64,000 nt of DNA. It comes from Gemmatimonadota bacterium. Its GTDB lineage: Bacteria > Gemmatimonadota > Gemmatimonadetes > Palauibacterales > Palauibacteraceae. The stretch is from positions 2,624,001 through 2,688,000 of the forward strand of contig OZ220691.1 of assembly GCA_965116475.1 (NCBI GenBank), in the 5' to 3' direction. The notes under the pieces are model-generated. The model worked only from the letters and a program-made list of their open reading frames with translations. It was not told the origin of the DNA and ran no database searches. Position numbers and translations under genes: made by a program. Positions 10,594 to 12,278 of this stretch are shown here, in pieces. Each line of letters begins with the position of its first letter. Position 1 is the first letter of the stretch.

Positions 10594-10609
10594 CGTTCCC
10601 GCGGGAACG
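10594..10609. repeat. Perfect 16-bp palindrome CGTTCCCGCGGGAACG, copy 1 (12 bp past DUF222 gene stop)
   Basis: Read directly; identical core at 11189-11204 and 12260-12275. Confidence 0.95.
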
Positions 10610-10621
10610 TGAGCGGCGGGC

Positions 10622-12106
10622 TCAGGCGGCCCGGGGCGCTTCGCCCGGAGTGCGCGGCGCCCGGGAGTCGCCGTACTGGCCCCACAGGACCCAGAGCGCC
10701 CAGTCCATGTCGAGCCGATCCCCCTGCCACTTGCCAGCCCCGGTCCAGGGGTCGATCCCTTTCTGTCTGTGCCAGCCGGCGAGCCCCGCATCGGGCGTCC
10801 TCGGCGCTTCCACATCCTCGCGCAACGGTGCAACCGCCGGTATCACGGTCCCGTCTGGATCCCTGAACCGCGCCGCCCCCGCCGCGCCGGCCTCCCCCGC
10901 CTGCATCTCCACGCGCCACCCGCCCTCATGCACCATCCGGTGATGGAAACGGCAGAGGAGGATGAGATTCTTCAGCACGGTTTCTCCGCCCTCGGCCCAG
11001 GGGATTGCGTGGTGAGCCTGCGTGTAGCGCGACCCGCAGCCCGGGAATCGGCAGCCCCCGTCGCGAACCTCGAGCGCCTTCCGCAGGCGCCAGTTCACCG
11101 TCCGACGCCGCCGGCCGACATCGAGCACCGAGCCGTCCAGCCCGCGGGTAACCCGCACCGCCTCGGCATCGCAGGAGAGGCGCCGCGACGTTCCCGCGGG
11201 AACGTGTGAACACTCCTCGGTGCTCAACACGTCGGGGGCTCCGGCCACCGTATGGACGACGAGTTGGACGTTCGCTTGCGTCCTGTCCTCGAGCCAGGCC
11301 TGAAGCGCATCGTGGTGCCGCTGCCCGGGCGTGCGCGGCAGTCTCAGCGGTTTCGGCTCCCACGGCGCGCTCGGCTGGTCCTCGCTTCCCTCGGCCCCCG
11401 CCTCCGCCCCTCCGGGGGTCTCGATCGCCGGTTCGGGAGCGGGCTCGGCGGCCTGTTCCGCTGCGCGCTCGGCCGCCCGTTCCGCGCGGTACAATTCGTC
11501 ACCCGCCGTCTCCAACGCCTGCAGGAGGAGGGCACCCACCTCCGGCGTCAGCAAGCCCCGCACGCGGTACATCCCATCTTCTGCCGCATGCACGTTCAGA
11601 TGGCGGCGCGTCGCGACTTCCGAATGGTCGTCCCACGCCTCCGCCGCCGCCTCGGCCGAGCGCCACGCCCGAACGAAGCGTTCGACCTGGCTCGCCGTGT
11701 GGTGCAGGGCGAACTCGACCAGCCGCTCCTCGTTTTCTTCCGTGGCGATCCGAGTCAGCGCCCGGACCTTGGACCACGAGAGACGCCCCCTCTCCATTTC
11801 CTCGGAGGTGAGCGGGAGGCAGGCGAGACGCCGGGCGACCCGCACCCGTTCGCGCGCCGTGCCGGTCGTCATGCCGGTGCGCCAGGACAGCCAGTGGGCG
11901 CACGAGATCCACCCGCTCCAGCCTTCCGCCGCGTCGAAGTGCTGGAGCAGGGTGAGAAGTCGGTACTGGCCGGCGTCGAGGTGAGCGCACAGGTGGGCGA
12001 TCTCATCGCCGAGGGGGCCAACGGGCGGAGGGGCACCCAGTCGAGTCGAGTGGCTGCGCCCCTCGCCGCTCGGGTTGCTGCCGCCGTGAGGCGTGTCGTG
12101 AAACAT
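10622..12106 (-). CDS. DUF222 (13E12 repeat family) HNH endonuclease
   Basis: SCAHWLSWRTG..ARERVRVARRL..LP, GRLSWSKVRALTR, SRRLSCDA, VLDVGRRRR, RDGGCRFPGC..AHH..W..GGET...NLILLCRFHH..VHEGGW; ATG 12106 with GGAG upstream. Confidence 0.92.
   Translation of the reverse strand: MFHDTPHGGSNPSGEGRSHSTRLGAPPPVGPLGDEIAHLCAHLDAGQYRLLTLLQHFDAAEGWSGWISCAHWLSWRTGMTTGTARERVRVARRLACLPLTSEEMERGRLSWSKVRALTRIATEENEERLVEFALHHTASQVERFVRAWRSAEAAAEAWDDHSEVATRRHLNVHAAEDGMYRVRGLLTPEVGALLLQALETAGDELYRAERAAERAAEQAAEPAPEPAIETPGGAEAGAEGSEDQPSAPWEPKPLRLPRTPGQRHHDALQAWLEDRTQANVQLVVHTVAGAPDVLSTEECSHVPAGTSRRLSCDAEAVRVTRGLDGSVLDVGRRRRTVNWRLRKALEVRDGGCRFPGCGSRYTQAHHAIPWAEGGETVLKNLILLCRFHHRMVHEGGWRVEMQAGEAGAAGAARFRDPDGTVIPAVAPLREDVEAPRTPDAGLAGWHRQKGIDPWTGAGKWQGDRLDMDWALWVLWGQYGDSRAPRTPGEAPRAA
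11188..11205. repeat. Palindrome copy 2 (18 bp, ACGTTCCCGCGGGAACGT) inside the DUF222 CDS
   Basis: Encodes the HVPAGTS segment preceding RRLSCD. Confidence 0.95.
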
Positions 12107-12256
12107 GGCGTGTCTCCGAAGTCGAGGGTGATCGTGCGCGACCGTGACGGCGCGCACCGGCGCGGAGCGGGTGACGTCGCGCCAACTCCGCTCTCCGCTC
12201 GCTCTTCGGTCAGTATTCGGTGAGATCTCAACGGAGTATCATCGGAGACCTCGCCA

Positions 12257-12278
12257 CGGCGTTCCCGCGGGAACGCCG
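12257..12278. repeat. Palindrome copy 3 (22 bp, CGGCGTTCCCGCGGGAACGCCG) upstream of the DUF222 gene
   Basis: Read directly; intergenic between DUF222 start and namZ stop. Confidence 0.95.

Follow-up and report, generated by a model that had tools for sequence, protein, structure and literature searches.

The window analysed here, a 64-kb stretch (G000:2624001-2688000) of the genome of a sponge bacterium (G000, a single 3.62-Mb contig whose closest named relatives are Ca. Palauibacter), carries a DUF222-HNH gene accompanied by three copies of a perfect 16-bp palindrome, CGTTCCCGCGGGAACG. We propose that the palindrome is a putative recognition site, read as duplex DNA, of the DUF222-HNH protein itself. 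The likeness of the site to parS and to the Noc-binding site (NBS), a ParB-type fold in the protein, the co-occurrence of gene and site, and the joint switching of their variants make this assignment quite probable.

Organization of the locus

One copy of the palindrome lies 12 bp beyond the stop codon of the gene, one is in frame within it at VPAGT (residues 302-306), and one stands 153 bp ahead of the ATG (Table 1). A first-pass annotation, made from the sequence alone, had reported these positions and the absence of other copies from the window, and an exact search bore out both. Its description of the gene as alone between convergent genes, with intact HNH and zinc motifs, also held: the flanking kinase gene (+) and namZ (-) are convergent, and C352, C357, H365, H366, N380, C385, H388, H389 and H393 are present and nearly invariant among 146 homologues. 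It had further noted GGAGA before each copy, which is true of all three window copies but of 0/71 other genomic copies on the + strand (one on the - strand). At the orthologous locus in G020, none of the three copies has GGAGA ahead of it, and the internal GGAGA consists of Leu-Ser codons; as a foot motif it was rejected, and it is treated as coincidence.

Table 1. Features at the DUF222-HNH locus (positions within the 64-kb window)
Feature	Position	Strand	Remarks
YegS/DAGK-like lipid kinase gene	9639-10565	+	host gene; left flank, outside the element
Downstream 16-bp palindrome	10594-10609	.	specific to the locus; also in G020, as a hybrid in G017; absent from G014, G010 and G013
DUF222-HNH gene, 494 aa	10622-12106	-	13E12-repeat family, Pfam PF02720 + PF01844; AlphaFold2 mean predicted local distance difference test (pLDDT) 81.5
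HNH nuclease domain, aa 352-393	10928-11053	-	catalytic and zinc residues intact; fold resembles IscB/McrA HNH domains
Internal palindrome, codes VPAGT	11189-11204	.	constraint at the DNA level: rare codons GTT and GGA; peptide varies with palindrome
ParB/Spo0J/KorB-like DNA-binding domain, aa 46-165	11612-11971	-	from predicted structure; no ParB CTPase domain preceding
Putative LexA (SOS) box, direct repeat CCGAA-N6-CCGAA	12205-12220	-	same motif at lexA and imuB-dnaE2
Upstream palindrome	12260-12275	.	5' limit of the sequence common to element copies
namZ exo-beta-N-acetylmuramidase gene	12318-13484	-	host gene; right flank, outside the element

A public contig is identical to the window over 9600-13188 and may be the source sample. 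Rfam gave a chance match only at 10400-12500, supporting no non-coding RNA there, and a sigma-70 consensus promoter of the gene was looked for and not found. An RNA run considered as expression evidence was discarded, as its content was DNA-like contigs of relatives and so not evidence of transcription.

Predicted fold of the protein

The protein matched DUF222 (expectation value, E, 3.6e-20) and HNH (E 5.5e-7) and no other Pfam family. Modelled alone, the N-terminal domain reached a pLDDT of 94.7, and its top VIA match among 48,161 chains was the ParB-parS structure 6s6h (Z 8.2, root-mean-square deviation 3.4, 106 aligned residues), followed at ranks 2-4 by Spo0J (Z 7.2) and KorB (6.4 and 6.3), with the next match at 5.1. 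The best ten Foldseek rows for this domain were all ParB, Noc or Spo0J (E 0.2-0.45). By structure only, the modelled N-terminal domain has a ParB-family DNA-binding fold, which had been expected from the sequence ahead of the structural search. The N-terminal CTPase (ParBc) domain had no Pfam match, and the DNA-binding-like domain starts at about residues 29-46 after a disordered leader, leaving no room for it. No HUH fold or motif occurred among the structural and Pfam matches of the protein; the middle region (residues 160-345) had no Atlas match, and the N-terminal Atlas search returned unnamed clusters only. A family search of representatives at 50% identity gave 13,311 DUF222-HNH clusters at E <= 1e-10. 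A search for carriage by phage or plasmid gave nothing beyond HNH-domain matches on viral contigs (9 loci) and no match on plasmids.

The palindrome across the genome

A genome-wide count, the check proposed with the first-pass annotation, returned 74 exact copies of the 16-mer in G000 (86 at <=1 mismatch), far above chance and not specific to the window; the next commonest perfect 16-bp palindrome had 3. The consensus around the sites reaches ~20 bp. The half-sites, CGTT(C/T)C(C/A)G, resemble parS TGTTTCAC and NBS TATTTCCC, the two sequences being taken for comparison from PMC7383237, and one site variant differs from the genome's own parS (1769156) solely in the central two bases. Gene calls of our own, based on codons, place 54 sites between genes, 21 of them where the neighbours converge, and 20 sites within genes, 7 of these being in DUF222 genes. 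Fifteen sites belong to seven DUF222-HNH gene copies or two remnants, and the other 59 are solo.

The solos, together with a palindrome-spacer-palindrome unit, supported the earlier suggestion of non-autonomous copies elsewhere. In this composite unit the two palindromes are 36-57 bp apart, and the spacer between them includes a conserved word that resembles a hairpin. It was seen at G000:C1:1407585, 1597512, 2760488 and 2892914 and also in runs X3 and X19; at 2892914-2892981 it is an insertion relative to the genome G006, and at 2760488 it lies in frame within a hydantoinase gene. Tandem palindromes with a 14-bp period, holding the terminal CG in common, occur at G000:C1:2814879-2814908, G301:C1:3347162 and G010:C1:1233375. 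Solos at G000:C1:2744244, 2764216, 2766807, 2769265, 2794259 and 2827389 often adjoin toxin-antitoxin-type (PIN, HicB, MazE) and BlaI/BlaR-like genes. Three 3-mismatch matches at 61545-61920 of the window are a different short repeat family, frequent genome-wide and probably a coding repeat.

Co-occurrence of gene and site and matching of variants

In a survey of 301 genomes of the phylum, sites were counted as matches to CGTYYCMGCKGRRACG, and genomes with at least 5 sites were called palindrome-rich. The gene was found in 48 genomes and at least 5 sites in 41, with both in 37; palindrome-rich genomes made up 37 of the 48 gene-positive genomes and 4 of the 253 gene-negative ones. These counts include kin and are not independent, but the same contrast held inside genus g47, where 11 gene-positive genomes had 3-24 sites and 8 gene-negative genomes had 0. 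In family f6, many sites lie inside the genes themselves, yet solos occur there too, as 13 of 31 sampled loci (five genomes) had no DUF222 in the locus.

The dominant site variant of each genome is the variant of its resident genes, with switches in G212, G301, G329, G297 and G010. Both G010 and G329 hold two gene clades, every clade with its own variant inside and upstream. Internal and flanking copies covary, a point that the first-pass annotation had proposed to check; in G010, a gene encoding VSAET and accompanied by two copies of CGTTTCCGCGGAAACG coexists with VPAGT genes. The internal position, read in 62 rows (two genes counted twice), held 46 perfect palindromes (six sequences), 7 hybrids, 4 one-off sequences and 5 that were absent or unread, and the peptide there tracked the DNA (VPAGT, VSAET, VTAVT). 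A residue-site code was also sought and rejected, as mutual information was highest outside the helix-turn-helix (HTH) and followed clades; a change of K113 to a hydrophobic residue accompanied CGTCTCC in one clade and was contradicted by G297.

Signs of site decay were seen in some places where the gene was lacking. Sites were most decayed in the closed, gene-less genome G011, at 17 one-off per 18 exact; the ratio was 38 per 145 for the three closed genomes with the gene. In two core genes 5/7 alleles from gene-less genomes were imperfect versus 5/28. A third core gene was at odds with this pattern, with 6/11 gene-bearing alleles likewise imperfect.

Origin and conservation of solo sites

Three site-bearing genes showed no insertion or deletion relative to their orthologues. 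VPAGT was encoded by all 18 orthologues of the hydantoinase B gene, 12 of which had the exact palindrome with its rare codons. The xanthine-dehydrogenase-like gene carried the site in 14/19 in-clade rows (G000 included, 15 with it counted) and had the length of site-less outgroups, give or take one upstream codon; the third gene was mixed (exact palindrome in 6/14). Sites within other genes numbered 13, as against 0-1 in 20 synonymous shuffles, and 16 of the 22 VPAGT peptides encoded in G000 used the exact palindrome. Since these genes were as long as site-less orthologues and the sites exceeded those in synonymous shuffles, we conclude that substitution, and not insertion, produced the solos in core genes. 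Uptake sequences have been described as arising by substitution (PMC2817400).

Conservation of solos was assessed by comparison with G006, of which 1.6 Mb (40% of the genome) was covered. Among alignable solos, 12/16 were intact, with differences at 25/256 in sites versus 205/768 in flanks. Fourteen further solos aligned on one side only, the alignment often stopping at the palindrome. Gene-order breaks fell in 13/21 site-bearing spacers versus 199/647 others (stratified odds ratio 2.8, p 0.025). At G000:C1:531321-531840, a methyltransferase gene lies between two palindromes, and G006 has other DNA between near-perfect palindromes there, a cassette swap.

Mobility of the gene

The gene is mobile or polymorphic, as had been supposed from the window: seven copies stand in unrelated places, and among 20 relatives with both flanking genes it was present in 5, the other 15 alleles being empty. 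One intact palindrome remained in 4 of the empty alleles, a decayed one in 2, and none in 9; a single palindrome in an empty allele could equally well reflect insertion at a site or deletion between sites. No joint between the outer palindromes was seen in 4 runs, three of which consisted of contigs and one of raw reads with a single read, a sample too small to bear on excision. Filled alleles were interspersed on the host tree, where several nodes were weak, indicating repeated loss or allele exchange at the locus. They retained one to three intact sites.

Six near-identical paralogues in unrelated places had in common a block that begins at the upstream palindrome and whose ends, the 5' ones among them, are ragged. 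The earlier notion of palindromes as element ends stood for the upstream copy, which marks the 5' limit of the block; the downstream copy is not a general end, as only the window gene among the 7 copies in G000 has one. Terminal inverted repeats were suggested by a single copy only. Several 3' ends abut a YTAG, and several the TAG stop of a convergent host gene. No constant terminal inverted repeat or target-site duplication was seen among the copies, the spacers of relatives being too diverged to give exact junctions. Remnants were found at 592347 and 2021477 in G000, and its solos at 614298 and 2346704 correspond to positions of the gene in relatives. The copy at G000:C1:1533323-1534800 lost its promoter block by a deletion beginning within the upstream palindrome, and the remnant at G000:C1:2021350-2021700 is internally deleted but retains the internal palindrome and 3' end.

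Chromosomal distribution of sites

In G000, the stretch at 1.767-1.775 Mb contains dnaA, parA, parB and two canonical parS, and a sequence at 14.9 kb (G000:C1:14918-14990), matched to a consensus, is one we take to be a dif-like site. The terminal tenth of the replichores has a single exact palindrome, ~30 bp from this site. Among ten closed genomes (four of them collinear kin, and the lengths of six rounded), the dnaA antipode fell inside the largest site-free gap in nine and inside the second largest in G100; in G301, the antipode gap was expected ahead of locating dnaA and then borne out. Pooled closed genomes had 3/206 site clusters in the terminal tenth, and G010, with 55 of its 67 sites listed, had 1/40 clusters in the last tenth and 9 in the last fifth. 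Along the G000 chromosome, profiles of GC content, atypical genes and other palindromes were flat. A gene copy in G022 (L010) stands after a host gene whose position in G000 is 67 kb from dif, which would be a counter-example to avoidance if gene order is kept in G022.

Putative SOS control

The direct repeat CCGAA-N6-CCGAA, which we infer to be a putative LexA box, stands ahead of 6/7 gene copies in G000, twice before lexA, and also before imuB-dnaE2. Across the genus, 25 gene copies have it 39-117 bp inward of the upstream palindrome, and intergenic matches numbered 18 at a spacer of 6 versus 1-7 at other spacers. Boxes of this kind in G000 at C1:651839, 651860, 955464, 1034160, 2774352 and 3202468 stand before lexA (twice), imuB-dnaE2 and three other genes, and make the motif a candidate LexA box for this lineage. 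Judged by eye, the products of these three look like a nuclease of the GIY-YIG type, a member of the DinB family and a repair protein of the radical-SAM type. An in-frame palindrome (L304, G000:C1:953588) lies in the DNA polymerase III alpha gene after imuB, behind an SOS-like box, and is kept in G006. A second box of this type, at 52920-52935 of the window, falls a short way into an open reading frame (52869-54020) that resembles a LuxR-type regulator gene, judged from its called start. No LexA motif description for the phylum was found in the literature searched. In Mycobacterium tuberculosis, 13E12 genes are LexA-bound (PMC3381160) and stand at inversion breakpoints (PMC13157036).

Interpretation and alternatives

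If the protein reads the palindrome, it may be a nuclease that is induced in the SOS response, docks on its sites and, by promoting recombination next to them, brings about its own spread; we infer both binding and cutting, and put the chances of this mechanism as a whole a little short of even. DNA damage would lift LexA repression and induce the gene, a dimer of the protein would dock on the two half-sites, and the HNH domain would nick or cut beside, not within, the site. With RecA active, recombination would start next to the site. The gene, together with its upstream and internal sites, would thereby be copied into spacers that have a site, or out of them, and neighbouring accessory genes would be swapped. 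Site-bearing alleles would be favoured, and sites would build up by point change even in core genes, like DNA uptake sequences, while sites near the terminus would be purged as the bound or cutting protein disturbed dimer resolution or division. In its fullest form, the proposal describes a new class of self-addressed, SOS-triggered recombination element, in which a ParB-derived reader joined to an HNH domain has its address written in its own coding sequence and drives that address into tens of positions on the chromosome, core genes among them, outside the terminus. These positions would serve as hot spots, inducible by damage, at which the element spreads and accessory genes are swapped. 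That form is possible, and we advance it tentatively.

Several observations weigh against this proposal. Sites persist in the gene-less genomes G011 (closed) and G008, G023 and G186 (drafts), with 18-37 sites each, and G121 has 7; among the former four, clear decay was seen only in G011. Conversely, 11/48 gene-positive genomes had fewer than 5 sites, three of them none. No HTH residue tracked the site variant, and near-identical recognition helices went with different variants. At loci outside the phylum, a related palindrome was found in 4/13. Sequence-profile searches matched the HNH domain only, with no profile match to ParB, and the fold scores were modest for a helical domain (Foldseek E > 0.2). 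Cutting at a site would tend to erase it, so conserved sites require cutting outside them or selection. Only 4/15 of the empty alleles had an intact site, and of eight loci at which relatives have the gene and G000 lacks it, G000 had a solo at 2, the background being 59/1964 spacers. The depletion near the terminus is real, yet partly confounded by convergent spacers, which are sparse there (13 vs ~27 per bin), and by 22 other repeats that are likewise sparse; G100 and G010 fit terminus avoidance poorly.

The alternative that survives best, though we regard it as unlikely, is a domesticated Noc-like damage checkpoint or repair organiser. The protein would bind its sites after DNA damage to the advantage of the host, delaying division or marking the part of the chromosome outside the terminus, and cutting would be secondary and mobility incidental. 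The distribution of sites is indeed Noc-like, as NBS are absent near the terminus (PMC7383237). In addition, ~74 sites are kept unchanged between species and written into core genes at codon cost, and the LexA-type box is shared with lexA and imuB-dnaE2. However, the gene is patchy, multi-copy, gained and lost within genera and gone from closed G011; the protein has no CTPase domain and so would not spread as Noc does, its HNH domain is intact under strong constraint, and its sites lie at gene-order breaks.

Rather more doubtful is the idea that the site belongs to another host protein, ParB or some other regulator, and that DUF222 genes carry it and are controlled through it. Persistence of sites in four genomes with no detectable gene, the failure of HTH residues to covary with the site, and the likeness to host parS would all follow. 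Against this, each genome has one ParB, with the same recognition residues in VPAGT-type, AGCT-type and site-less genomes, and no second ParB/Noc paralogue was found in the 5 genomes examined. All 8 gene-negative members of g47 lacked sites, and in G010 and G329 two cognate variants stand side by side, each with its own gene clade.

A self-recognized duplex site also has to be set against the hairpin logic of REP (repetitive extragenic palindrome) sequences and their RAYT transposases, or of IS200/IS605 elements, which the first-pass annotation had invoked and under which the site would act as a single-stranded hairpin and the solos would be transposed non-autonomous copies. Gene and site co-occur and match in variant as RAYT and REP do (PMC2817692), 21/54 intergenic sites lie between convergent genes, which hold 15% of spacer space, the composite unit was inserted relative to G006, and the 16-mer is foldable, at about -6 kcal/mol. 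Yet flank pairing was no higher than independent half-site preference predicts (46 vs 49 expected, 36 vs 38, 25 vs 24), and asymmetric half-site hybrids occurred at the independent rate in G301 (15/24 vs 12 expected), G193 and G000. Sites within genes lacked indels, the fold is a ParB-type HTH and not HUH, and no unpaired GTAG/CGTC foot was found outside the stem; the sites thus depart from REPs as characterized in PMC3733652 and PMC2817692. A terminator or hairpin role was rejected as well, with a T-tract after 3/74 sites and no flank pairing. A duplex dimer site fits the sequences better than REP, and the REP-like explanation is improbable. The original picture of a selfish element defined by its palindrome is supported for the mobile gene, the covarying internal and flanking copies and the non-autonomous copies, but not for hairpin logic or for the downstream copy as a general end.

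Equally improbable is that the protein represses itself through upstream and internal operators (KorB-like looping) and that solos are leftovers of lost copies: the spacing of the upstream site from the SOS box, the solos at relatives' gene positions and the two remnants agree with it, but scars should decay whereas solos are better conserved than their flanks, the 13 core-gene sites cannot be scars, and terminus avoidance would go unexplained.

To our knowledge, no substrate is known for the DUF222-HNH proteins, a very large family that stands out in the SOS regulon of mycobacteria and at their rearrangement breakpoints. With a named candidate substrate of 16 bp, natural variants and their matched proteins, and filled and empty alleles, the function can be tested directly. 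If the proposal is true, a CTPase-less ParB-type domain that steers a nuclease, with Noc-like geography of the sites kept up around a gene that is mobile, would connect selfish elements with chromosome organisation in a new way. The DUF222/13E12 family as a whole would gain the mechanism it lacks, and its members would amount to a natural collection of site-specific nucleases with orthogonal 16-bp targets.

Comparison with known systems

Free-standing HNH homing endonucleases have separate binding and HNH domains. The element is similar in this respect and in having filled and empty alleles interspersed on the host tree, but in filled alleles the site presumed to be its target stays whole or is duplicated instead of being broken up, and many of the targets dispersed over the genome are conserved. 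From OMEGA (IscB) systems it differs further, as only the HNH stretch matched IscB (16 bits against a cut-off of 175), and RuvC, bridge helix and omegaRNA were lacking.

Among the known systems closest to it is the 13E12/REP13E12 family of M. tuberculosis, whose members have PF02720 with a C-terminal HNH and are multi-copy, dispersed and located at rearrangement breakpoints (PMC13157036). LexA binds there (PMC3381160), and a candidate LexA-type box precedes the gene here. In contrast, no recognition site or ParB-like domain has been described for DUF222/13E12 in the literature searched, which excluded most subscription journals, and outside Gemmatimonadota a related palindrome was found at 4 of the 13 loci covered.

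With Noc-NBS, ParB-parS and KorB-OB, the element shares the predicted DNA-binding fold, a 16-bp palindrome of GTTYC-N4-GRAAC type and, as for NBS, some 74 dispersed sites that are sparse near the terminus. Unlike those systems, it has no CTPase domain, an HNH domain in place of a dimerisation tail, mobile multi-copy genes, a site in its own coding sequence and an SOS-type box. It is also unlike ParABS in that its sites are dispersed, not clustered at oriC, and the gene is not beside parA, the host parA, parB and parS lying apart at 1.767-1.769 Mb.

RAYT-REP and REPIN-BIME systems likewise have a nuclease gene flanked by cognate palindromes, dispersed copies that co-occur and covary with it, a bias to convergent spacers and a two-site unit; here, however, HNH and HTH domains replace the HUH tyrosine transposase, the half-sites are apparently read as duplex, sites arise by substitution, and one lies inside the gene. 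DNA uptake sequences (DUS/USS) and HIP1 are similarly short, over-represented coding words that are made by substitution and bias peptides (PMC2817400), but the present site numbers tens and not thousands of copies, spans 16-20 bp, and goes with a nuclease gene that is mobile, not with methylases or the machinery of competence. The parts of this element, namely the family, the ParB fold and the HNH domain, are known, and their combination places it outside every system compared.

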